A DNA stretch of 64,000 nucleotides from positions 2,103-66,102 of the forward strand of contig JBQDBK010000011.1 in the NCBI GenBank assembly GCA_052090825.1. Direction: 5' to 3'. This DNA comes from Peptoniphilaceae bacterium. Its GTDB lineage: Bacteria; Bacillota; Clostridia; Tissierellales; Peptoniphilaceae. Below the pieces are notes generated by a model. The model made no database searches, was not told the origin of the DNA, and worked only from the letters and a program-made list of their open reading frames with translations. A program made the translations under genes and the position numbers. This document shows, piece after piece, positions 3,807-39,213 of the stretch; within the stretch, counting starts at the first letter, position 1, and each line of letters starts with the position of its first letter.

Positions 3807-4634
3807 ATGATAGAAATAAATAATGTAAGCTTTAAATATAGTCAAGAGAGTGAAGTTAATATTATAAATAATTTAAACTTAAAAATTGAAAAGGGAGAGT
3901 TTTTAGCAGTATTAGGACACAATGGTAGCGGAAAATCAACTTTAGCTAAATTAATAAATGGCCTTTTGCTTCCAAGTTCGGGAAGTGTTTTAGTCAATGG
4001 AATGGATACTAAAAATGATGATTTAATTTGGGATATTAGGGCAAATACAGGCATGGTGTTTCAAAATCCAGACAATCAGCTTGTAGCTACAGTAGTAGAA
4101 GAAGATGTTGCTTTTGGTCCTGAAAATTTAGGGATTTCATCAGAAGAAATTGCCAAAAGAGTTACAGAATCTTTAGAAGCTGTAAATATGTTAGATTTTA
4201 GGGGGAATGCACCTCATATGTTATCTGGAGGGCAAAAGCAGAGAATAGCTATTGCAGGTATTTTAGCTATGTCTCCTGATTATATAATTTTAGATGAACC
4301 TACTGCTATGTTAGATCCTGTAGGTAGAAAAGAAGTTATGGATACTATAACCATGCTTAATAAAAGTCAAAATAAAACTATAATTTTAATAACACACTAT
4401 ATGGATGAGGCTGCTTTGGCGGATAAAATTGTAGTGATGGAAAAAGGGAATATAGCTTTAGAAGGAAGTCCCAGAAAAGTATTTTCAAAAGTTGATAAAA
4501 TAAAAGAAATTGGACTTGATGTTCCACAGGTTACAGAACTTGCTTGGGAATTAAAAAAAGAAGGTTATGATTTTAATGCTGAAGTTTTAAATGTAGAAGA
4601 ACTAGTAGGTGAATTATGGACATTATTGAAATAA
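3807..4634 (+). CDS. ecfA1: Energy-coupling factor (ECF) transporter ATPase A1
   Basis: Walker [13 protein letters not shown] signature LSGGQKQR, Walker B IILDEPT. It is the first of the conserved ecfA-ecfA'-ecfT-truA array. Confidence 0.9.
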
Positions 4635-5482
4635 AAAATTTAACTCATATATATGGATTAGCTACTACATTTGAAAAAAAAGCCTTAGATAATATAAATT
4701 TAAATATTAAAAAAGGTGATTTTATAGGGCTTATAGGTCATACGGGGTCTGGGAAATCAACCTTGATTCAACATTTAAATGGACTTATAAAAGCGAGTTC
4801 AGGACAAGTTTATATAGATGGAGTTGATATTGGAGCAAAAGGTGTAAAACTAAGGAAAATAAGACAAAAAGTTGGTCTAGTATTCCAATATCCAGAATAC
4901 CAATTATTTGAAGAAACTATTGAAAAAGATATAGCCTATGGACCAATGAATCAAGGATTGAGTGGGATAGAATTAAGTCAAAGAGTTGAGGAAACTATGG
5001 ATTTAGTTGGTCTTGATTATGACGAATATAAAGATAGGTCCCCTTTTGAATTATCCGGTGGACAAAAAAGAAGGGTTGCAATAGCGGGAGTTTTGGCTAT
5101 GAAACCAGAAGTCTTAATTCTAGATGAGCCAACAGCTGGGCTTGATCCATCAGGCAGGGATGAAATATTAAGTAGGATAAAGAATATTTATAAAAATAGT
5201 GACATTACAATAATACTTGTGTCTCATTCTATGGAAGATATAGCAAATATAGCTAAGAGAATAGTAGTAATGAGTAATGGGAAAATCATAATGGATGATA
5301 AGCCTAGGGAAATATTTAAAAGAGAAAATGAATTAGTAGAAATAGGCTTAGGAATACCACAGATAACATCTTTTATGAGAGCTTTAAAAAATAAAGATTT
5401 GAACATAGATGATGATATTTTAACTGTAGAAGAAGCAAAAGATGAACTAATCAAATATTTAAGGGGAAAAATAAATGCTTAA
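4616..5482 (+). CDS. ecfA2: Energy-coupling factor (ECF) transporter ATPase A2
   Basis: Walker [10 protein letters not shown], signature LSGGQKRR, Walker B LILDEPT. Overlaps the ecfA1 stop by 19 nt. Confidence 0.9.
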
Positions 5483-7131: not shown

Positions 7132-8931
7132 ATGAAAATAATAAATAGCATTTTAAATACTTTAAATAAGACTAAATCGTCTTTTCAGAGATTTCCTTTA
7201 GCAATGCTTAGTATATTTATATCTTTTATATTTTTCATGATTGGAGAAAATAAAAAACAATCTATATTTTTAAGTAATGTTTACAAAGGAAATGAACAAT
7301 TATATATAAAGTATGGATATTTATTTTTTATCCTTACAATTATTTTAGTGCTGATATCTTTATTAAATGAATTATTAAAAAACTCTGCTAGAGATGAGGA
7401 AGAATTAAAAAAATTTAAACTAATTAGTAGAGGGGCATATATCTTAACTATACCTTTAATTTATGCTCTGTATAATAATGTTATTTTTAAGGAAACTGGA
7501 CTTTTTTTATATGAAGATATGTATAAATATTTTGGACTTCTTGCTTTTTTTTCTTTAGTTGTAACTTATATAGCAAAAATAAATTATCATAAGGATTATG
7601 TTTTTTATTTTATAAAAATTTTAAAAGCAGGAATGATATCATTAGGATATTCTTTTATAATGTTAGTAGGACTTTTTTCAATTTATTATGCAGTTCAAGA
7701 ACTATTTGGAGAAAAAATAAATCCCTTAGTTTATACAAATACTGCATTAGCTATATTCTTGCCTTTTAATTTTGGAGTGTTTTTCTCAAATTTTCCAAAG
7801 ATCAGAGATTCTTTAGTGAATTATAAAATATCAAAAGTAATAAAAGTATTAATAAACTATATAATAATACCAATATTTACAATATATGCTATAATTTTAT
7901 ACTTATATTTTGCTAAAATTATACTGATAAAGAGTATACCTGAAGGAATTATAAGTAATTTAGTGCTTTGGTTTTGTTTATTAAGTATTTTTTTGTTATT
8001 TATAACTACAGTTATAAAGGATATAGAAATATCTAAGATTTTTAATAAAATTTTTCCTATAATTTTATTACCATTGTTAATAATGCTTTTTTATGCAATA
8101 GGAATAAGGATCTATGAGTATGGTTTTACAGAAAGTAGGTACTATGTTTTAATGGGTGGAATATTTTCATTTATTTCGATGTTGTACTATATATTTTATA
8201 AAGATAGTTCTAATATAACCATAATTATACTATTTTCTATAATTATTTTAATATCATCAGTAGGACCTTTAAATGCCTACAATATTTCTGCAACAAGTCA
8301 AAATAAAAAATTTGAAAGTATTTTACTAAAAAACAAAATGATTAAAGATAATAAAATAATTCCTAAATCAGATATAGATAAAAATGATAAAAAAGCAATA
8401 GAGAGCATAGTAAATTATATGACAGTAAAACATAGACCCTGGGAGCTTAAATATATACCTAAAGATTATGAAAATAATGAAGAAAATTTTGAGAAACTTT
8501 TGGGATTTAAATATACCAAGGATGATAGTGAATTAGACTCAGTCCACTTTAATTATGACAGGTCTTATTCAATAACTATAGCTGGTTATACAAATATGGT
8601 TGCCATGAACCTGTCTTCTAATAATGATATAATTGCAGAATCTGGAAATTATACTGCCAATATTGAAGATGGTGTAGTTAATATTGATTATAAAAGTAAG
8701 GATGAATTTACTTTAGTAAAATTTTCAATAAAAGAAGTTTTTGATAAATATAAGGCAATAAAAAATTCTAATCAAAGTGTTACTTTAGATTATATTGCTA
8801 TAAAAGGGTCAGAAAATGGTATAAATTATAAAATTATTTTTACTAGTTTAGAGTCTTATCAAAATAGTTTAAGTCCAGAAAAATGTGACTATGATTTTTC
8901 TTTTTATATATTAACTGATTCAGAACAATAA
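7132..8931 (+). CDS. Large polytopic membrane protein with a C-terminal soluble domain (DUF4153-like by general appearance)
   Basis: 599 aa, with many hydrophobic segments over about the first 385 aa and then a hydrophilic tail. RBS GAGGAG lies upstream. The family name is recalled from memory, not verified. Confidence 0.5.
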   Translation: MKIINSILNTLNKTKSSFQRFPLAMLSIFISFIFFMIGENKKQSIFLSNVYKGNEQLYIKYGYLFFILTIILVLISLLNELLKNSARDEEELKKFKLISRGAYILTIPLIYALYNNVIFKETGLFLYEDMYKYFGLLAFFSLVVTYIAKINYHKDYVFYFIKILKAGMISLGYSFIMLVGLFSIYYAVQELFGEKINPLVYTNTALAIFLPFNFGVFFSNFPKIRDSLVNYKISKVIKVLINYIIIPIFTIYAIILYLYFAKIILIKSIPEGIISNLVLWFCLLSIFLLFITTVIKDIEISKIFNKIFPIILLPLLIMLFYAIGIRIYEYGFTESRYYVLMGGIFSFISMLYYIFYKDSSNITIIILFSIIILISSVGPLNAYNISATSQNKKFESILLKNKMIKDNKIIPKSDIDKNDKKAIESIVNYMTVKHRPWELKYIPKDYENNEENFEKLLGFKYTKDDSELDSVHFNYDRSYSITIAGYTNMVAMNLSSNNDIIAESGNYTANIEDGVVNIDYKSKDEFTLVKFSIKEVFDKYKAIKNSNQSVTLDYIAIKGSENGINYKIIFTSLESYQNSLSPEKCDYDFSFYILTDSEQ

Positions 8932-8933
8932 AA

Positions 8934-8963
8934 GTAGAGAAGATTAATACTTCTCTTTTTTTT
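8934..8963 (+). terminator. Intrinsic terminator after the membrane protein gene
   Basis: AGAGAAG ... CTTCTCT stem followed by a T8 run. Confidence 0.7.
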
Positions 8964-8979
8964 ATGTTAAAATATATTT

Positions 8980-9672
8980 ATGATTAAAAAAGATAATGTT
9001 CCTGGTAAAAAATATAAAATATATCAAGAAGATTCTAATTTTAAATATACTACTGATTCCTTAATACTATCATCTTTTGCTAAAGTTAAAGGATTGTGCG
9101 TGGACTTAGGATGTGGAACGGGTATTTTGTCCTTAAGGCTTATAGATAAAGTGAAAAAATTTATAAATATAGACATAAATGAGGAGGTTATAAAATTACT
9201 TAATATGTCAGTAGCCTTAAATGAATTAGAAGATAAAATTGATAATTATAATATTGACCTAAAAGAGATTTCAAAAATCTTAACTAGGCAAAGCATAGAT
9301 ACGGTTATAACAAATCCACCTTACTATAATAATGGTCATAGAGTGAAAAATAATATGATAGACAAGGCTAGATATAGTGATTTTATAGAAGACTTTATAT
9401 ATGCTGCTAACTATATATTAAAAAATGGAGGTAAATTTTATTGTATAGTTCCAGCAACAAGAATGTTGGATATATCTATAATTCTTATAAATTCACATAT
9501 TGAGCCTAAAAAATTTCAATTTATTAAGAAAGATATATCTTCACAGGCTAAGCTAGTATTAGTTGAAGGAGTAAAAGGCGCTAAGAAGAATTATACTATA
9601 CTTCCTGATTTTATTTTATATAAAAATGGTCAAATAAGTGAGGAATTAAATAAAATATATAAGGAGGTATAA
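8980..9672 (+). CDS. SAM-dependent N6-adenine methyltransferase, tRNA1(Val) m6A37 TrmN6/YfiC/YabB-like
   Basis: SAM motif DLGCGTGIL and catalytic TNPPYY motif. Sits directly upstream of rsmI, as in the Bacillus yabB-...-yabC locus. Confidence 0.75.
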   Translation: MIKKDNVPGKKYKIYQEDSNFKYTTDSLILSSFAKVKGLCVDLGCGTGILSLRLIDKVKKFINIDINEEVIKLLNMSVALNELEDKIDNYNIDLKEISKILTRQSIDTVITNPPYYNNGHRVKNNMIDKARYSDFIEDFIYAANYILKNGGKFYCIVPATRMLDISIILINSHIEPKKFQFIKKDISSQAKLVLVEGVKGAKKNYTILPDFILYKNGQISEELNKIYKEV

Positions 9673-10488
9673 ATGATTTATTTTTGTCCAACACCAATTG
9701 GTAATTTAAAAGATATAAGCTTAAGAACATTAGATATATTGAAAAAAGTTGATATAATAGCTGCCGAAGATACAAGAGTGAGTTTGAAGTTATTAAGCAC
9801 TTATAATATAAAAAAAAGACTTATTAGTTATCATAAATTTAATGAAAAATCTCAATCTGAAGAAATTATAAAGTTATCAAAAGAAAATAATATAGCAATA
9901 ATAAGCGATGCAGGGCTACCTGGTATAAGTGATCCAGGGGAAATATTAGCTAAAAGATTGATTGAAGAAAACATAGATTTTCAAGTTATACCTGGAGCAA
10001 ATGCTGCTCTTACAGCTTTAGTTTTATCTGGAATAAGTAGCCAACATTTTTTATTTTATGGCTTTTTAACTTCTAAATCTTCACATAGGAAAAAAGAGCT
10101 TAAAGAATTAGAAAATAATCCATATACTTTAATTTTTTATGAATCTCCACATAGGTTGATGTCTATGTTAGAAGATCTTTACGAAATATTTGGCGATAGA
10201 AAAATTTCTATATCTAGAGAATTAACTAAGATGTATGAAGAAACTTATAGAGGAGACCTATCTGAAATCTTAAATAATAAAGAATATGTAAAGTTAAAAG
10301 GTGAATTTGTAGTTGTTGTAGAGGGTAAAGCTAGAGTTAAAGAAGAGAACATAGATGTAAGAAAGCTATTAAAAGAAAAAATAGAATCTGGTATAAAGAA
10401 ATCCCAAGCAGTCAAAGAAATTTCCAAAGAATATAATATTTCGAAAAATGACCTATATAAAGTAAGCTTGGAGGTAGACAATGAATGA
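9673..10488 (+). CDS. rsmI: 16S rRNA (cytidine1402-2'-O)-methyltransferase RsmI
   Basis: The N-terminus PTPIGNLKDISLRTLDILKKVDIIAAEDTR is typical of RsmI tetrapyrrole-methylase-fold enzymes. Starts 1 nt after the preceding stop. Confidence 0.9.
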   Translation: MIYFCPTPIGNLKDISLRTLDILKKVDIIAAEDTRVSLKLLSTYNIKKRLISYHKFNEKSQSEEIIKLSKENNIAIISDAGLPGISDPGEILAKRLIEENIDFQVIPGANAALTALVLSGISSQHFLFYGFLTSKSSHRKKELKELENNPYTLIFYESPHRLMSMLEDLYEIFGDRKISISRELTKMYEETYRGDLSEILNNKEYVKLKGEFVVVVEGKARVKEENIDVRKLLKEKIESGIKKSQAVKEISKEYNISKNDLYKVSLEVDNE

Positions 10489-11440
10489 CTTCAATGAAAT
10501 GAAAGAGGATATAAAAGAATTAAATTATCTTTTAAAAAATAAATATAATAAATTCTTTTCCATGCCTAGAGAAAGTTTTAGGGTTGAAGTTTTAAATGAA
10601 ATAGGAAAATTTTCAAGTTTAGAAAAGCTTTCTAATAAAAAGTTAAAAGAATTTGGTTTGGTAGTAGGTGTGGATGGGTCAGTGAATAAGGTAGGAGGAA
10701 GCTATCCTCACTATATTGAATTATATCAAGCTCTGGCTAAACCAACTATAGGAGAAGATTTGTTTTCTAATAGTTATTATAGTCCTATGCTAAGTGGTAA
10801 TACATCAGAAGATGAAAAACTTGAAATCAATAAGAGAGAAAAATTATTAGCTAGTATAGAGTTAGATGTAGCTATTAAGTCTGTAAAGTATCATAAACCA
10901 TCTATACTTATGATGGATGGAGGATTAATAAGATATAAAATTCATGATCAATATAATTATGAAGAATTAATAAGTTTATGTGAAAAAAATTCAGTTGTTA
11001 TAGTAGGAGTAATAAAAGATTTAAAGACGAATGTAATATCAAGAACCTTAAATGAAGACTTATCTTTATACGATAGAGAATTACTTTATGGAAAACTTAA
11101 CAAGGGTGATTTTATTGAAATAAAAGATGAATATAATAAGAAGTCTGAAGAAAAGGATAGTGATGAAGGATTAGTATCTGCTTTTTTAAATACATCCAGC
11201 TCAGCTATGGCAATAGGCCTAGATTTAATAAAATCGCAGAGAGAATATATTAAAGATGTTGCAAATCTAGTTTATACTTTAACTCCAAATAATTCTAGAG
11301 GAGTACCCTTATGGTTAGATATAGTAGATAATGAAGTTAAGATAACAGATCTTATGATTGAATCTATGTTAGAGGAGTACTTAGATAGAGATATATATGA
11401 AAGGTTTTTTGTTTCTGAAAGAGATAGGAGAGGAATATGA
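10481..11440 (+). CDS. NurA-like nuclease (RNase-H-fold DNA end-processing nuclease family)
   Basis: 319 aa with the ordered acidic motifs VGVDGS, SIELD and MMDGGL, which resemble the catalytic D..E..D arrangement of NurA. The ATG overlaps the rsmI stop (ATGAATGA) and GGAGG lies 6 nt upstream. Partnered with a HerA-type ATPase gene. Confidence 0.6.
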   Translation: MNDFNEMKEDIKELNYLLKNKYNKFFSMPRESFRVEVLNEIGKFSSLEKLSNKKLKEFGLVVGVDGSVNKVGGSYPHYIELYQALAKPTIGEDLFSNSYYSPMLSGNTSEDEKLEINKREKLLASIELDVAIKSVKYHKPSILMMDGGLIRYKIHDQYNYEELISLCEKNSVVIVGVIKDLKTNVISRTLNEDLSLYDRELLYGKLNKGDFIEIKDEYNKKSEEKDSDEGLVSAFLNTSSSAMAIGLDLIKSQREYIKDVANLVYTLTPNNSRGVPLWLDIVDNEVKITDLMIESMLEEYLDRDIYERFFVSERDRRGI

Positions 11441-13284
11441 AAGTAGTTGGAATAACAACAGCTCAAGAAGTTTTTATAGGTTCTAGAGATAGAAATTTTA
11501 GAATGAATGAGTTTTTAATAATAGAAGATTCAGTTCAAGGAGATCTTGTAGGTGAGATTGTAGATGCTAAAACTTTTAATAGATATATCCCCTTAAATAT
11601 AGGCGGAGATTTCATAGATGCTTCTGTTATAGAATCTCTTAGGGCTATGGGGTATGACGTCAATGAAGAGACTATATATATAGGAAAACTAAGATTATTA
11701 AGAGAGGCACAATATCCCGTGCTAACAGGAAGCAGCATTAGAATACCAGAATTTAATGAAGTAAAAAAAATAATTGCCCCAACTCATCCAAAGGAAGGTC
11801 TTGTTTTAGGTATAATAAGAAACTCTGATTCTTTAACTAAAAAGATGGATGATTCATATAAAAATTTACTAGATATATATGAGGATGGAAACTATTTAAA
11901 CCAGCATGAAGTACCCTATGTTCTAGACTATAAATCTATGCATGAATATCCTCATATTGGAGTATTTGGAGGTTCTGGATCGGGTAAAAGTTTTGGGCTA
12001 AGGGTTATGCTTGAAGAGTTAATGAATAAAGATATTCCTACTGTAGTTTTAGACCCTCATTATGAGATGTCTTTTTCAGACAAGTCTGAGTCAAATTATT
12101 CACGAGATTATAAGGGGAAATTTTATAATCTTCAAATAGGAATAGATGTAGGGATAAGATTTGAAGATTTAAGTGTGACAGATATTAAGAATTTATTGAA
12201 TACCTCATCTCATTTAACTGAGTCTATGAGTAATAGTGTTGATTTACTTTTTAGTAGGGGAGCTAATTATCATAGTTTTTCCAATAAGTTAAGATATTTA
12301 GTTGAAGCTCAAGAGTTGGGTAGTTTAGATAAAATAGATGAGAAGATAAATTATGCTGATACGCCTCAAGAAAGAGAAGAGTGGGAAAAAAGAAAAAAAA
12401 TATACATGAAATATGATAAATTTTGTCCTAATCAATCTGTAAGAGGTATCATGTGGAGATTAAATAGGCTTTATAATGAAGGGATATTTAATAATGATAT
12501 TTCTAAAATAGTAGATGGAATAAAAGCTGGAAAATTAGTAGTAATACAAGGTTCTACCAGAATAATACAAGTATTTTCAACTTATTTATTAAATAAATTA
12601 TATTATGAGAGAAGAGAATATAGAGAAGCTAAGTATAGGAATGAAATTAAAGAATTTTTCCCGCCTTTTATAATAGTAACGGATGAAGCGCATAATTTTG
12701 CTCCTAAAGGTTATGATACTCCTTCAAAATCAATTTTAAAGGAAATTTCGCAAGAGGGTAGGAAGTATGGTGTATTTTTAGTATTAGCAACTCAAAGGCC
12801 TACTCTTTTAGATGAGACAATAACAGCCCAATTAAATACAAAATTCATTTTTAGGACTGTTAGAGCTTCTGATATAGATACAATAAAAGAAGAAACTGAT
12901 ATATCCTCAGAAGAATCAAGAAGACTACCTTACTTAATGACAGGAGATGTTTTTATATCTTCTGCAAAATTAGGTAGAACTTCTTACGTAAGGATAAGAT
13001 CAGCTCATACAACATCACCTCATAAAGAAAATCCTTTTGATGAATTATTGGGCATAAAATCCAAAGAAAATAAAGATTTTTTAAATTATATAGAAGATTT
13101 TATGCCTATTTCAGTAGCTACAGATTGTCTATCTATCATACAAGAAATAAATAATAGATATTCTATCAATTATACGATGGAACAATTTAAATTAAAGTTA
13201 GAAGAACTCGAGAAAAGTGGGCTTATAGAAGTTGAAGATACTTTTATAGGAAAGCAGTATATTTTTAAAAATAAGGAAATCTAA
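11437..13284 (+). CDS. HerA-type (FtsK/HerA superfamily, DUF87) hexameric ATPase/translocase
   Basis: N-terminal barrel-like region, Walker A GGSGSGKSF, Walker B IIVTDEAHNF, then ATQRPT...FIFR. ATGA overlap with the nurA-like stop. About 90 extra C-terminal residues follow the ATPase core. Confidence 0.8.
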   Translation: MKVVGITTAQEVFIGSRDRNFRMNEFLIIEDSVQGDLVGEIVDAKTFNRYIPLNIGGDFIDASVIESLRAMGYDVNEETIYIGKLRLLREAQYPVLTGSSIRIPEFNEVKKIIAPTHPKEGLVLGIIRNSDSLTKKMDDSYKNLLDIYEDGNYLNQHEVPYVLDYKSMHEYPHIGVFGGSGSGKSFGLRVMLEELMNKDIPTVVLDPHYEMSFSDKSESNYSRDYKGKFYNLQIGIDVGIRFEDLSVTDIKNLLNTSSHLTESMSNSVDLLFSRGANYHSFSNKLRYLVEAQELGSLDKIDEKINYADTPQEREEWEKRKKIYMKYDKFCPNQSVRGIMWRLNRLYNEGIFNNDISKIVDGIKAGKLVVIQGSTRIIQVFSTYLLNKLYYERREYREAKYRNEIKEFFPPFIIVTDEAHNFAPKGYDTPSKSILKEISQEGRKYGVFLVLATQRPTLLDETITAQLNTKFIFRTVRASDIDTIKEETDISSEESRRLPYLMTGDVFISSAKLGRTSYVRIRSAHTTSPHKENPFDELLGIKSKENKDFLNYIEDFMPISVATDCLSIIQEINNRYSINYTMEQFKLKLEELEKSGLIEVEDTFIGKQYIFKNKEI

Positions 13285-13286
13285 TA

Positions 13287-13979
13287 ATGAATACTCATGC
13301 CTATATTTACAGAGAATTAAGTAATAATATAGATAATAAATATAGAGAATTTAACTCTAAATTAATTCCTAATATAGATAAAAAGAAAATATTAGGAGTA
13401 AGAACCCCAATATTGAGAAAGATAAGTAATGAAATTCTAAATAAGTTTGATTATGGAGATTATTTAAAAGAGCTTCCTCATAAGTATTACGAAGAAAATA
13501 ATATACATGGATTTATAATAGCAGGGCAAAAAGATTTTGAAAAAACTATTTATTTATTAGATAATTTTTTACCTTTTATTGACAATTGGGCTACTTGTGA
13601 TAGTATATCTCTTAAAATATTTAAAAAATATCCTAAAGAAACTTATTCTAAGATAATGAAATGGCTAGATTCTGATAGAACTTATACTAAAAGATTTGCT
13701 ATAGTTTCCTTGCTAAAGTTTTACTTAGATGAAAATTTCACAAGAGAATCTTTAAATAAAGTTGTATCTATAAAAAGTAAAGATTATTACGTTAATATGG
13801 CTATAGCTTGGTATCTAAGTTATGCTTTAATTAAACAATATAATTTAACCATAAAGATTATTGAATCAAAAAAATTAGGTGAGTTTGTTCAAAATAAGAC
13901 GATAGAAAAAGCTATAGAAAGTAGAAGAGTAGAATGGGAGGTAAAAAATTATCTGAAAAAATTTAAAATAAGAGGATAG
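13287..13979 (+). CDS. DNA alkylation repair protein (AlkD/AlkC-like HEAT-repeat family)
   Basis: 230 aa with LGVRTPILRKIS and the DNWATCD motif typical of the DNA_alkylation family. Starts 2 nt after the herA-like stop. Confidence 0.7.
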   Translation: MNTHAYIYRELSNNIDNKYREFNSKLIPNIDKKKILGVRTPILRKISNEILNKFDYGDYLKELPHKYYEENNIHGFIIAGQKDFEKTIYLLDNFLPFIDNWATCDSISLKIFKKYPKETYSKIMKWLDSDRTYTKRFAIVSLLKFYLDENFTRESLNKVVSIKSKDYYVNMAIAWYLSYALIKQYNLTIKIIESKKLGEFVQNKTIEKAIESRRVEWEVKNYLKKFKIRG

Positions 13980-15651: not shown

Positions 15652-17085
15652 TTATTTTCTTTTTTTTATGGAACCGATAATTCCCCTAGCTATCTCTCTT
15701 CCTATTTGACGGCTTATAGTATAGGCAAAAGAATTAAATATGGAAGAAATAAAGTCTTTATTATCTTTAGAAGTACTATTAGCTTTTTTTTCATCAACTA
15801 TATCTATTTTTTTGAACTTTCTTTGTAAGATTTCATAGGCTGATTCTCTATCTATAATTTTTTTGTATTTATTATTTAGTTTTGATAAATTAATAATATC
15901 ATTATAATCAGTTTGAGTTAAAGTTTCAAAAGATGAATGAGGAGGGAATATTAAAGCTTTTTTAGAAAAGGTTGGAGAGCCATCTACATCTATAGTGCTT
16001 ATAATAGCTTCTCCAGTTCTTAAAGTAGATAAATCATTTTCAAGATTAAGATTTTCATCCTGTCTTAAAGTTTTTGAAATGTCCCTTATATTTTTCATTT
16101 CTTTTGGAGAAAAAGCTCTTAACTGATGAATTATTTTATTTCCTAGTTGAGATGATATAGAATCTGGGATATCCATAGGATTTTGGGTTACAAAATATAT
16201 TCCAATACCCTTAGAGCGTATTAATCTAACAACTTGATTAATTTTTTCTAAAATAATTTCACTAGAATTATTAAATAATAAATGAGCTTCATCAAAGAAA
16301 AATACTAATTTAGGAAGATTCTGATCACCCACTTCTGGAAGCTCTTCGAATAACTCAGAAAGAAGCCATAATAAAAACATAGAATAAACTGTAGGATTAT
16401 TAATCAATTTTTCACTAGATAAAATATTTATATATCCTCTACCTAAATCATCTTTTCTAAATAAGTCTCTAATATCTAAGGATGGTTCATTAAAAAATAG
16501 ATCAGCACCTAAATCTTCTAAATATAAAAGTTTTCTTCTAATTGCATTTATAGATTGATTAGATATATTCCCGAATTCAGATGAGAATTCTTGTCTTTTT
16601 TCTGACATCAACTTAAGAATAGAAGTTAGATCCTTTAAGTCTAAGAGTAGAAGTCCCATTGAGTCAGCTATTCTAAAAGCAATATTTAATATTCCAGCTT
16701 GGGTATCATTTAATCCTAAAATTTGGGATAAAATAATTGGGCCCATTTCACTTACATTAATTCTGAGCGGAAGTCCTTTTTCTCCAAAAGTATCCCACAA
16801 TTCAACAGGGTAGGCATAATAGTTGAAATTATATATATTTAGTTCCTCTAACCTAGCAATAATTTTATCATTAGGACTTCCAGCTTTACATAGATTGGCA
16901 AGATCCCCTTTAACATCAGATAAAATCACTGGAATTCCAAGTTCTGAAAAAGACTCGGCTAAAACTTTTAAGGTTACTGTTTTTCCAGAGCCTGTAGCAC
17001 CACATATTAGACCATGTTGATTGATTTTATTAGATAATATATTAATATTTTCATTGTCACTTGTTTTTGCAAAAGTTATATTCAA
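15652..17085 (-). CDS. DUF853 / YjgR-like P-loop NTPase (HerA-like helicase domain)
   Basis: Walker A GATGSGKT, Walker B FFFDEAHLLF, basic C-terminal tail. TTG start at 17085-17083 is supported by AGGAGGT 5 nt upstream. Confidence 0.75.
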   Translation of the reverse strand: MNITFAKTSDNENINILSNKINQHGLICGATGSGKTVTLKVLAESFSELGIPVILSDVKGDLANLCKAGSPNDKIIARLEELNIYNFNYYAYPVELWDTFGEKGLPLRINVSEMGPIILSQILGLNDTQAGILNIAFRIADSMGLLLLDLKDLTSILKLMSEKRQEFSSEFGNISNQSINAIRRKLLYLEDLGADLFFNEPSLDIRDLFRKDDLGRGYINILSSEKLINNPTVYSMFLLWLLSELFEELPEVGDQNLPKLVFFFDEAHLLFNNSSEIILEKINQVVRLIRSKGIGIYFVTQNPMDIPDSISSQLGNKIIHQLRAFSPKEMKNIRDISKTLRQDENLNLENDLSTLRTGEAIISTIDVDGSPTFSKKALIFPPHSSFETLTQTDYNDIINLSKLNNKYKKIIDRESAYEILQRKFKKIDIVDEKKANSTSKDNKDFISSIFNSFAYTISRQIGREIARGIIGSIKKRK

Positions 17086-36019: not shown

Positions 36020-37954
36020 ATGTTATTTAAAACTAATCAAGAGCATGAAGAATTAAGAAAAGCAATTAGAGAATTTTCTGAAGCAGAAATAAAACCTATA
36101 GCATTTTCTTTAGATCAAAACAATGAATTTCCTGATGAAATTATTAAAAAAATTGGAGAAAATGGATGGATGGGCTTACCATATTCTAAAAAAGATGGTG
36201 GAGCTGGAAAAGATGTATTATCTTATGCAATTGCAGTAGAAGAACTTTCAAGAGTTGATGGTGGAGTAGGTGTAATTTTATCTGCACATACATCTTTGGG
36301 ATCTTATCCTATAGAAGCTTTTGGTACAGAGGAACAAAAGAAAAAATACTTAGTACCTTTAGCAAAAGGAGAAGCTATTGGTGCATTTGGTCTAACAGAA
36401 CCAGAAGCAGGAAGTGATGCTGGTGGGACTGAAACTGTAGCAGAACTAGATGGAGACCATTACATTTTAAATGGTAATAAAATATATATAACTAATGCAC
36501 CAAAAGCTGATTATTATATTGTTTTTGCAGTTACAACACCTGGAATAGGAACTCACGGTATATCAGCTTTTATAGTTGAAAGAGGATGGGAAGGATTTGG
36601 ATTTGGAGATCATTATGATAAATTAGGTATAAGATCTTCTTCTACAGCTGAATTAACATTTGATAATGTAAAAGTACCAAAAGAAAATCTATTAGGTAAA
36701 GAAGGACAAGGTTTTAGAATTGCAATGCAAACACTTGATGGTGGTCGTATTGGTATTGCGGCTCAAGCTTTAGGTATAGCTCAAGGAGCTTATGAAGCGG
36801 CTTTAAAATATGCTAAGGAAAGAATTCAATTTGGTAAACCAATTGCTAGACAACAAATTATTTCTTTTAAATTAGCTGATATGGCTACAAAATTAAGATG
36901 TGCTAGATTTCTAGTATATTCAGCAGCAGAAATGAAACAAAACCATGAAAATTATGGTATGGAAGCAGCCATGGCAAAACAATACGCTTCAGATGTATGT
37001 TTAGAAATTGTAAATGATGCTCTTCAAATACATGGTGGTGCTGGATATCTAAAAGGTATGGACGTAGAAAGATTCTATCGTGATGCTAAGATAACTACTA
37101 TTTATGAAGGAACAAATGAAATTCAAAGAGTAGTTATAGCTGCAAATATAATTGGTAAATTACCTAGAAGTAAAAGAGGTTCAGCAGGAGTAGCAGCAAA
37201 AAAAGAAGGGCCTATAACTGGAAATAGAAAAAGACAAATAATCAAGGCGGATACAGCTAAAGAGGCAGTAGATGAATTAGTTGCTAATCTTAAAAAAGAT
37301 GGATATGACTTTACCGTGGGAATAGATATAGATACTCCGATTTATGAGTCAGAAAGAGTAGTTAGTATTGGTAAAGGAATTGGCTCAAAAGAAAATTTAG
37401 AAATGGCAAGAGAGTTAGCTCATGCAGCTGGTGCTTCTTTAGGTAGTTCAAGACCAGTAGCTGAAACAATGAAACTTTTACCTCTAGAAAGATATGTAGG
37501 AATGTCTGGTCAAAAATTTAAGGGAAATTTATATATAGCTTGTGGTATTTCAGGAGCATCTCAACACCTTAAAGGAATAAAAGATGCATCTACTATTGTA
37601 GCTATTAATAAAAATTCTGGAGCACCTATCTTTAAAAATGCTGATTATGGAATAGTAGGAGATATGCACGAAATAATGCCACTTCTAGCTGAAGCTTTGG
37701 GAACAGGTGAAAAGAAAGAAGCTCCTCCAATGAAAAAAGTTAGAAGATCAAAACCTAGAAAATTAGCCCCAACTTATGGAGTATATGTATGTCCAGGTTG
37801 TGGATATGAATACGATCCAAATGTTGGAGATCCAGAAGGAGAAATTGATCCAGGAACAACTTTTGAAAAACTTCCAGATGATTGGACTTGTCCAGAATGT
37901 CAAGAAGAAAAACAAAACTTTATTGAAGAAGAATATCCAGAGGATAGAAAGTAA
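36020..37954 (+). CDS. Tri-domain fusion: acyl-CoA dehydrogenase + ETF-alpha C-terminal FAD domain + rubredoxin
   Basis: aa 1-~380 carry ACAD signatures ([21 protein letters not shown], catalytic-base context [10 protein letters not shown]). aa ~430-560 match the ETF-alpha FAD-domain signature ([29 protein letters not shown]). aa ~586-640 form a rubredoxin (CPGC ... CPEC). The reading frame is uninterrupted, and RBS AGAGGGG lies upstream. Confidence 0.85.
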
Positions 37955-37971
37955 TAAGGAGGATATAGATT

Positions 37972-39213
37972 ATGTATGCAGTTAGAAAAGTTACTGATGA
38001 CTTATATTGGGTTGGTGGAAATGACCACAGATTAGAATTATTCGAAAATATTTTTCCTATACCAAAGGGAGTTTCCTATAATTCATATTTATTACTAGAT
38101 AAAAAAACTGTTTTATTTGATTCAGTTGATTGGTCAATAGCTCGTGATTTAATAGAAAATATTAAGTCTGTACTTGATGGAAAAGACCTTGACTATTTTG
38201 TAATCCATCATATGGAACCTGATCATGCAGCTGGAATTGAAGAAGTTTGTATGAGATATCCAAATGTAAAACTTGTTTCAAGTGAACAAGGTTTTGAAAT
38301 AATGAGACAATTAGGATACGATTTAATAGAAAAACACGAATGTATAATTGTTAAAGAAGGCGACACTATGAACTTTGGTGAGCATACTTTTGCCTTTGTA
38401 GAAGCACCAATGGTACATTGGCCAGAAGTTATCTTAAGTTATGATACTAAAGATGGAGTATTATTTGCTGCAGATGCCTTTGGTACATTCGGAGCCTTAG
38501 ATGGTAAGTTGTTTAATGATGAAGTTAATTTTGATAGAGATTGGTTAGATGAAGCTAGAAGATATTATACTAATATTGTTGGTAAATATGGTCCTTTTGT
38601 TCAAGATGTATTAAAAAAAGCTTCTACTTTAGATATTAAATATATTTGTCCACTTCATGGTCCAGTTTGGAGAAATAATTTTGAATACATTATTGATAAA
38701 TATGACAAATGGTCAAAATATGAACCTGAAGAAACTGGTGTTATGATAGCTTATGCTTCAATGTATGGAAATACAGAACGTGCTGCCCAAGCTTTAGCTA
38801 GTGAGCTTTGTGATAAGGGTATGACAAATGTAGTTGTTCACGATGTATCAAATACACATATGTCTGAATTAATATCTGACTCTTTTAAATATTCTCATAT
38901 AGTTTTAGCTTCTGTAACTTACAACTTAGAAATTTATCCAATTATGAAAAACTTTATAATGGATATGGCAGCTTTGAACCTACAAAACAGAACTGTTGGA
39001 ATAATTGAAAATGGTAGTTGGGCTTGTACAGTAGGTGACAAGATGGAAGAGTTTGTAGAAGAGCAATTAAAATTAGTAGACGTTTTAAATGACAGAGTTA
39101 CAGTTAACTCGGCTTTAAATGAAGCTAATGCTAATGATATGCATAGTTTAGCTGATTCAATTTTAGAATCAATGGAAAAAATTAAAGAAATTAAAGAAAA
39201 ATTCAATAAATAA
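37972..39213 (+). CDS. Class-A flavodiiron protein (FprA / rubredoxin:oxygen or NO oxidoreductase type)
   Basis: 413 aa with a metallo-beta-lactamase-like diiron motif HHMEPDHAAG and a C-terminal flavodoxin-like domain (VMIAYASMYGNTE). RBS AAGGAGG upstream. Starts 17 nt after the fusion gene. Confidence 0.9.
   Translation: MYAVRKVTDDLYWVGGNDHRLELFENIFPIPKGVSYNSYLLLDKKTVLFDSVDWSIARDLIENIKSVLDGKDLDYFVIHHMEPDHAAGIEEVCMRYPNVKLVSSEQGFEIMRQLGYDLIEKHECIIVKEGDTMNFGEHTFAFVEAPMVHWPEVILSYDTKDGVLFAADAFGTFGALDGKLFNDEVNFDRDWLDEARRYYTNIVGKYGPFVQDVLKKASTLDIKYICPLHGPVWRNNFEYIIDKYDKWSKYEPEETGVMIAYASMYGNTERAAQALASELCDKGMTNVVVHDVSNTHMSELISDSFKYSHIVLASVTYNLEIYPIMKNFIMDMAALNLQNRTVGIIENGSWACTVGDKMEEFVEEQLKLVDVLNDRVTVNSALNEANANDMHSLADSILESMEKIKEIKEKFNK

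Follow-up and report, generated by a model that had tools for sequence, protein, structure and literature searches.

We analysed a 64,000-nucleotide stretch of DNA from a Peptoniphilaceae bacterium (contig JBQDBK010000011.1; the whole stretch is called the window), in which two adjacent open reading frames (ORFs) encode a NurA-type nuclease and a HerA-type ATPase. In the class Tissierellia the nurA–herA pair occupies a fixed chromosomal position, is inherited vertically and is under strong constraint, and it probably serves core genome maintenance at DNA ends. This role might lie in the processing of breaks or collapsed forks for recombination, in the degradation of linear DNA in the manner of RecBCD, or in both. 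The window sequence is identical to a contig of the Peptoniphilaceae/Tissierellia metagenome-assembled genome (MAG) GCA_052103775.1, and the host, a member of the Tissierellia, resembles Peptoniphilus.

NurA–HerA systems have been described before, and NCBI annotation already labels NurA proteins as such; taken alone, the result confirms an annotation and introduces no novel type of system. What is added is a separate Firmicute lineage, far from the studied Deinococcus pair, with class-wide fixation at the rsmI/abrB locus, constraint above that of adjacent housekeeping genes, and a closest outgroup that keeps a linkage to Mre11/Rad50. No publications on NurA–HerA or NurA in Firmicutes or Tissierellia were found in the literature searched, in agreement with an earlier reading of the DNA sequence alone (the sequence-only reading), which noted that bacterial NurA–HerA is not known to have been studied outside the Deinococcus-Thermus group. 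The physiological role of NurA–HerA is still disputed, in model systems too. With Tissierellia there is a third and independent bacterial lineage; that the pair is core, fixed and under strong constraint over hundreds of its species points to an important function in ordinary mesophiles. Common human commensals and opportunists are among the members of this lineage, which offers a comparative handle on repair versus DNA destruction, its nearest thermophilic relatives being still linked to Mre11/Rad50.

The NurA and HerA proteins

The nurA gene (10481..11440, + strand) encodes 319 amino acids and the herA gene (11437..13284, + strand) encodes 615, as the sequence-only reading had stated. The nurA stop and the herA start overlap by 4 nt (ATGA), and nurA and herA form a translationally coupled pair. 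The nurA ATG is preceded 10 nt upstream by GGAGG and overlaps the end of the preceding gene, rsmI, by 8 nt.

The 319-residue protein matched the Pfam NurA profile (PF09376) with 73.9 bits (cut-off 21, E = 1.9e-20), over positions 2–254 of the 254 in the profile. Its AlphaFold2 (AF2) model, made with 34 homologues in the input, was confident, with a predicted local distance difference test score (pLDDT) of 89.1 and a predicted template-modelling score (pTM) of 0.86. When the model was compared with the PDB by Foldseek, the best match was Sulfolobus solfataricus NurA (2YGK; E = 3.9e-12, template-modelling score (TM) 0.59), followed by Thermococcus kodakarensis NurA from the HerA–NurA complex (9X1M_G; E = 6.4e-11, TM 0.63). 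The next matches, to the RNase-H-like proteins EndoV and PIWI, were about five orders of magnitude lower, at ~1e-6. The profile and the model together identify the protein as a NurA with a predicted RNase-H-like core and, as in solved NurA structures, helical extensions at both ends.

Three acidic residues form the predicted active site. D65 lies in the motif VDGS (residues 64–67; 10670..10681, + strand), E127 is encoded at 10859..10861 (+ strand), and D146 lies in the motif MDGG (residues 145–148; 10913..10924, + strand). Across 91 diverse members of the clade only seven residues are invariant; D65, E127 and D146 are among them, as is G147. The catalytic residues of S. solfataricus NurA are D58, E116 and D133 (PMC3326311), and the equivalence with the window protein is drawn from order and spacing: 62 residues separate D65 from E127 (58 for D58–E116), and 19 separate E127 from D146 (17 for E116–D133). 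Relatives with 47–67% identity were found in Peptoniphilus, Anaerosphaera and other Tissierellia, many of them already labelled 'DNA double-strand break repair nuclease NurA' by NCBI.

The 615-residue protein matched the Pfam DUF87/HerA central domain with 68.8 bits (cut-off 23.2, E = 9.8e-19), while weaker matches to Pfam FtsK and TrwB were limited to the P-loop region at residues 158–207. Its best NCBIfam model was helicase_HerA, the archaeal 'DSB repair helicase HerA' (91.7 bits, residues 128–492). The motifs of the ATPase core are all present on the + strand and are invariant in the 18 Tissierellia orthologues over which they were assessed: Walker A, GGSGSGKS, with K184 (residues 178–185; 11968..11991), Walker B, VTDEAHNF, with D416 and E417 (residues 414–421; 12676..12699), and ATQRP (residues 451–455; 12787..12801). 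The last of these sits inside the conserved core region LATQRPTLLDETITAQLNTKFIFR, and this segment is the part that aligns best with solved HerA structures. Across Tissierellia the protein is 59–76% identical, and relatives with 60–76% identity carry only the NCBI name 'ATP-binding protein'.

The core is flanked by two further domains. The N-terminal beta-rich domain (residues 1–105; 11437..11751, + strand), which has six strands in residues 2–102 of the AF2 model (pLDDT ~75–87 except in a loop at residues 51–58), is the predicted NurA-docking HAS-barrel; residues 1–105 alone matched no Pfam model. At the other end, a C-terminal extension (residues 535–610; 13039..13266, + strand) is modelled as three helices and a beta-hairpin with a winged-helix-like arrangement (pLDDT ~80). 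It had no Pfam match either, and alignment shows it to be common to HerA relatives from Ammonifex and from Firmicute megaplasmids. Binding of DNA or of a partner protein are possibilities for this extension.

Foldseek comparison of the HerA model gave its best scores with Sulfolobus HerA (4D2I; E = 1e-17) and Thermococcus HerA (9X1M_A; E = 3.5e-17), with alignments that cover the full length of both archaeal proteins (4d2i, 9x1m). HerA structures of anti-phage defence systems followed at 6e-13 to 1e-11 (8XAU, an ATPase–nuclease anti-phage complex, and HerA–DUF4297, 9C1N/9C1M), with Sir2–HerA ranking lower than these; D. radiodurans HerA scored 1e-11 and TrwB 1e-6. HerA structures overall spanned 1e-17 to 1e-9. 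The predicted structure is thus closest to the NurA-partnered archaeal HerAs, well ahead of the defence HerAs and of TrwB.

These results bear out the protein assignments of the sequence-only reading, which had taken the 319-residue protein for a NurA from its ordered VDGS, E and MDGG motifs and its partner for a HerA from Walker A, Walker B and ATQRP. Every motif that it quoted was found, the profile hidden Markov model searches that it called for placed both proteins above their Pfam cut-offs, and the NurA model has an RNase-H-like fold nearest to the Sulfolobus and Thermococcus NurAs. The ATPase likewise groups with HerA and not with TrwB, FtsK or VirB4, judged by the Foldseek scores and the best NCBIfam model.

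Distribution, synteny and known relatives

The distribution of the pair was determined by a genome scan with the HerA alignment, using one genome per GTDB species. A HerA relative was encoded by 362 genomes, and the best 80 of these were all Tissierellia. The synteny counts and median identities given below refer to the loci of these 80 genomes, which were searched with the window proteins by tblastn. Only 166 clusters matched the window NurA at E ≤ 1e-3 in a library of 1.84 billion representatives, and the named members of its clade are Peptoniphilus, Aedoeadaptatus, Finegoldia, Gallicola, Tissierellia MAGs and a distant Ammonifex group.

The gene order around the pair was strongly conserved. 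The nurA gene lay immediately 5' of herA in all 74 evaluable loci; six loci that were flagged in this count are merely ones in which nurA overlaps herA. Immediately upstream of nurA was rsmI, in 66 of 66 evaluable Tissierellia loci whether or not an abrB gene lay between them, and a TrmN-like methyltransferase gene preceded rsmI in 42 of 59 evaluable relatives. A divergently transcribed abrB separated rsmI from nurA in 35 of 69 loci (for example at 4609–4848, − strand, of locus L037), and the two genes abutted as in the window in 24 of 69. Because abrB intervenes in so many loci, the adjacency of rsmI and nurA is positional and does not require co-transcription, and functional coupling of nurA with rsmI was rejected on the same grounds. 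The rsmI gene followed by a divergent abrB is the arrangement seen in B. subtilis; in Peptoniphilus-type loci abrB has been lost, and nurA there abuts or overlaps rsmI. In Tissierella and [Clostridium] ultunense the locus extends upstream into the classical Firmicute cluster tmk-holB-yaaT...rsmI(-abrB).

The proteins of the locus differ in their conservation. Median identity to the window proteins was 61.7% for HerA, 51.4% for RsmI, 45.5% for NurA and 38.1% for the TrmN-like methyltransferase, and the conservation of HerA exceeded that of RsmI in 62 of 68 genomes. The pair showed no sign of mobility in the collections searched: relatives of NurA were found on none of 72,556 plasmids and in none of 50,697 phage records, and no relatives of either protein turned up when the IMG/VR viral contigs were searched with the alignment of each. 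NurA also had no significant match among the PADLOC defence models. The fixed synteny, the constraint, these plasmid, phage and virus negatives and the lack of a PADLOC match for NurA argue that this is a core, vertically inherited pair and not a mobile defence module.

One locus carried an unexpected label. Record CABMKH010000005.1 (L074) is titled 'Varibaculum timonense', an actinobacterial name, and contains a typical Tissierellia trmN-rsmI-nurA-herA locus with 61% identity in HerA; the genome is probably mislabelled.

Outside Tissierellia, the nearest NurA group consists of nine proteins from the thermophiles Ammonifex and Desulfothermobacter. In Ammonifex degensii (CP001785.1; locus L088, 7001–13175) nurA is followed directly by herA (643 aa), a gene for an Mre11-like metallophosphoesterase and a Rad50-like ATPase gene that is split into pieces of 445, 96 and 222 aa. 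The HerA proteins of A. degensii and the window align from end to end, C-terminal extension included, with 36% identity (E = 2e-136), and the NurA proteins are 26% identical (E = 1e-31). With this nurA-herA-mre11-rad50 order, the thermophilic members of the Firmicute NurA–HerA lineage retain the archaeal association of four genes. The Ammonifex/Desulfothermobacter cluster, which is uncharacterised, differs from the Tissierellia locus in these following genes and in not lying at the rsmI locus.

The characterised archaeal complexes (S. solfataricus, 2YGK/4D2I; T. kodakarensis, 9X1L–9X1P) share both folds with the window pair and supply the best PDB matches for both proteins. The order of the D-E-D triad is the same in the window NurA and its spacing similar; the N-terminal barrel, Walker A and B, the ATQRP-type ATPase core and the adjacency of the two genes also recur, and a 6:2 complex may be presumed for the window pair too. 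The archaeal systems differ in their structure-based identity to the window proteins, which is only 12–17%, in having no direct sequence link to the window NurA, and in the linkage to mre11-rad50 that the Tissierellia pair lacks. The Tissierellia hosts, moreover, are mesophilic bacteria, and the window HerA bears a longer C-terminal three-helix and hairpin extension and lies far below the cut-offs set for equivalogs of the archaeal protein.

The Deinococcus radiodurans and Thermus thermophilus NurA–HerA systems (7F6D, 7WRW/7WRX) are, like the window pair, bacterial two-gene pairs without mre11-rad50 and with the same overall architecture. D. radiodurans HerA nevertheless scored only 20.9 bits against the window HerA by sequence, compared with 57–59 bits for archaeal HerAs, and by fold it gave E = 1e-11, compared with 1e-17 for archaeal HerA. 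The window pair is a separate Firmicute lineage and is not close to the Deinococcus pair.

A further set of HerA relatives was observed on Firmicute megaplasmids of 300–720 kb. These proteins are full-length, share 33–38% identity with the window HerA and occur without NurA; the records are C. perfringens pJFP838A (L085), B. thuringiensis BTB_502p (L086) and a 300-kb C. difficile BI1 record (L087). The same megaplasmids also bear secA, dnaE, thg1 and CBASS genes. Just upstream of the megaplasmid herA lies a gene for a homologue, of about 220 aa, of the C-terminal piece of the split Ammonifex Rad50 (E = 1e-13 to 6e-26), and a metallophosphoesterase gene is sometimes found nearby. The megaplasmid locus is possibly a HerA plus Mre11/Rad50-like module that lacks NurA.

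Possible roles of the pair

A mechanism for the pair can be drawn by homology from the Sulfolobus, Deinococcus and Thermococcus complexes (PMC3326311, PMC9960219, PMC12977600). The HerA hexamer would load as a ring on a double-stranded DNA end and pump the duplex through its central channel using ATP. The duplex would be fed into a NurA dimer docked on the N-terminal barrel of HerA, where the strands would part and be cut at the metal-dependent, RNase-H-like sites formed by D65, E127 and D146. Assembly and activity in Tissierellia are inferred from these homologues.

We take the probable function to be core genome maintenance at DNA ends. The strictly conserved nuclease triad fits such a role, as does the gene order in Ammonifex degensii, where Mre11-like and split Rad50-like genes directly follow nurA-herA. 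The sequence-only reading had argued for repair from the housekeeping context of the operon; the context itself is confirmed, with rsmI synteny fixed across the class, but core location alone is no proof of repair. It had also cited NurA–HerA as the archaeal end-resection machine. The archaeal-type identity of the pair stands, while end resection has been questioned by a 2026 structural study of an archaeal complex, and that the Tissierellia proteins perform classical 5'–3' resection is a tentative proposal to which we give somewhat less than an even chance.

Several observations weigh against this account. The T. kodakarensis complex of the 2026 study cuts both strands whatever the structure of the end, which puts end resection itself in doubt, and its authors propose an antiviral role (PMC12977600). 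D. radiodurans NurA–HerA also cuts both strands, and deletion of the pair in Deinococcus and in Thermus caused no sensitivity to DNA damage (PMC9960219, PMC12977600). Linked Mre11/Rad50-like genes were found neither in the window nor in the 80 Tissierellia loci. Exact copies of the LexA (Cheo) box, GAAC-N4-GTTC, were absent both from the 0.95 Mb of loci and from the window, and one-mismatch boxes were not enriched upstream of nurA (0.07 vs 0.11 per kb); there was no sign of SOS control, taking this box, the canonical Firmicute LexA motif, as the assumed motif for Tissierellia. The AlkD-like gene that follows herA in the window does so in only 3 of the 80 relatives and was rejected as a conserved repair partner.

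The other points on this side concern the distance from characterised proteins and the confidence of the HerA model. HerA scored far below the NCBIfam equivalog cut-offs (91.7 bits against 970 for NF040819, and 72.3 against 800 for NF040937); by its profile matches the protein is a HerA, but one without equivalog status to the archaeal 'DNA double-strand break repair helicase HerA'. Its AF2 model was of moderate confidence only (pLDDT 75, pTM 0.71). Neither the NurA sequence itself nor the profile of its clade retrieved any match from the PDB. Because both of these searches failed to find a NurA, the NurA lineage must be very divergent, and its link to characterised NurAs is provided by the Pfam profile and the modelled fold.

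The alternative that survives best is that the pair acts mainly as an innate, core-encoded barrier to foreign DNA in linear form, whether it comes from phages or by transformation, destroying both strands in the manner of RecBCD and leaving no 3' tails for RecA. We regard it as unlikely, though it is the strongest of the alternatives. It would account for the two-strand cutting by the T. kodakarensis and D. radiodurans complexes, for the antiviral role proposed for the former, for deletion mutants that are not sensitive to damage, and for the failure to find a LexA box upstream of nurA. A fixed core location is compatible with it, since RecBCD is also core-encoded. RecBCD and AddAB are here functional analogues and not homologues: they too are core-encoded, ATP-driven translocase–nucleases acting at double-stranded DNA ends, potentially in both recombination and the destruction of foreign DNA, but they belong to unrelated families, whereas the window pair would combine a ring translocase with an RNase-H-like dimer and has no known Chi-like control. 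Against a barrier function, immune genes tend to diversify, and synteny fixed throughout the class together with a HerA more conserved than RsmI is out of the ordinary for them; NurA has no counterpart among the PADLOC models, and those for defence HerAs align with the window HerA in the shared ATPase core only. The Ammonifex relatives, furthermore, sit with Mre11/Rad50-like repair genes.

A more far-reaching version of the end-processing role is that NurA–HerA is the principal double-strand-end processor of Tissierellia, replacing or dominating AddAB/RecBCD. This is quite unlikely in our estimate. A search of the literature on AddAB in Tissierellia genera found nothing relevant. If the proposal were true, an archaeal-type ring translocase and nuclease, inherited vertically and under tighter constraint than the adjacent ribosome-modification genes, would hold this place throughout a class of mesophilic, partly human-associated Firmicutes (Peptoniphilus, Finegoldia, Tissierella), bacteria in which the pair could prove essential and its function in the cell might be decided.

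The pair could instead have another role in chromosome maintenance, such as the restraint or regulation of recombination, the processing of stalled forks or Holliday junctions, or FtsK-like handling of DNA at division or transfer. This is consistent with the phenotypes of Thermus and Deinococcus mutants, which resist damage better, show changes in recombination or proliferate abnormally, and with the interactions of Sulfolobus HerA with PINA and Hjc and of Deinococcus HerA with RecJ (PMC9960219, PMC12977600). Many Tissierellia loci also adjoin the replication-linked tmk-holB-yaaT...rsmI cluster. The nuclease triad, however, is intact and strictly conserved, which argues that the cutting of DNA is the selected activity, and we judge such a role improbable.

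The sequence-only reading had further left room for a defence function. A dedicated, horizontally mobile anti-phage system, in which HerA works with an effector and NurA is that effector, activated by infection, is suggested by the HerA-family ATPases that serve as motors of Sir2–HerA and DUF4297–HerA; these systems share with the window pair a hexameric motor with a common ATPase core and an effector enzyme. The PADLOC HerA models gave partial matches to the window HerA of 57–75 bits, over the shared ATPase core. The partner, however, is NurA and neither Sir2 nor DUF4297, and the known systems are mobile and patchy in distribution while this pair is fixed in the core genome. The anti-phage HerA models are limited to residues ~380–530 of HerA (for HerA_antiphage_2, 57.4 bits against a cut-off of 850, at residues 384–520 only), and Foldseek places the defence HerAs 4–5 orders of magnitude under the archaeal, NurA-partnered ones. 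With no PADLOC match for NurA and only partial ones for HerA, identity with a known defence system was rejected. The position next to rsmI was invariant in the 66 evaluable genomes, the window has no flanking defence or mobile genes and is housekeeping throughout, and the plasmid, phage and viral-contig searches described above were negative. A mobile module of this kind is therefore disfavoured and highly improbable, and of the defence proposal it is the core-encoded barrier to linear DNA that is kept as a rival.

Least credible of all, and barely so, is an action of the pair on RNA or ribosomes: the constant neighbourhood of rsmI, usually with a tRNA-methyltransferase-like gene, and the kinship of the NurA fold with PIWI and EndoV, proteins capable of acting on RNA, would speak for it, but the intervening abrB marks this neighbourhood as positional, all characterised NurA–HerA complexes act on DNA (PMC3326311, PMC9960219, PMC12977600), and in Ammonifex the pair has Mre11/Rad50-like genes, and not rsmI, as its linked neighbours.

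Other genes of the window

In the window, nurA and herA are the third and fourth genes of a five-gene unit on the + strand. A terminator-like hairpin with an overlapping promoter-like site (8936..8973, + strand), found after the preceding gene by a consensus scan whose site counts were not above those in shuffled sequence, is weak evidence for the likely upstream boundary of this unit. The first gene (8980..9672, + strand) encodes the TrmN-like (YabB-type) S-adenosylmethionine-dependent methyltransferase (Pfam MTS, 49.3 bits; best NCBIfam model TrmN), and the second is rsmI (9673..10488, + strand), for the 16S rRNA C1402 2'-O-methyltransferase (TIGR00096, 275 bits against a cut-off of 167.9). 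The unit ends with the gene (13287..13979, + strand) for the AlkD/AlkC-like HEAT-repeat 'DNA alkylation repair' protein (Pfam DNA_alkylation PF08713, 69.3 bits). This gene starts 2 nt past the herA stop and is probably co-transcribed with herA in the window.

The remainder of the window is core chromosome, with ecfA/A'/T, truA, secA, two opp systems, pheST, zapA, mutS2 and argS, and no tandem or CRISPR-like arrays were found in it. A second HerA-family ATPase is encoded 2.4 kb past herA (15652–17085, − strand). This is a 477-aa DUF853/'HerA-like C-terminal' protein of the YjgR type (PF05872, 599.6 bits; DUF87, 50.9 bits) without a nuclease partner, and it is also found downstream in Peptoniphilus mikwangii (L005), with 59% identity. 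Between truA and the methyltransferase genes lies a gene (7132–8931, + strand) for a DUF4153-family protein of 599 aa that passes through the membrane several times; this gene is kept at the same position in only 5 of the 80 relatives, the closest Peptoniphilus-type ones.

Farther along the window, a 644-aa fusion protein (36020–37954, + strand) joins a complete acyl-CoA dehydrogenase to the flavin adenine dinucleotide (FAD)-binding domain of electron-transfer flavoprotein (ETF) alpha and a C-terminal rubredoxin. This fusion gene is followed, at 37972–39213, by a gene for a flavodiiron-like protein with ODP/metallo-beta-lactamase and flavodoxin domains.

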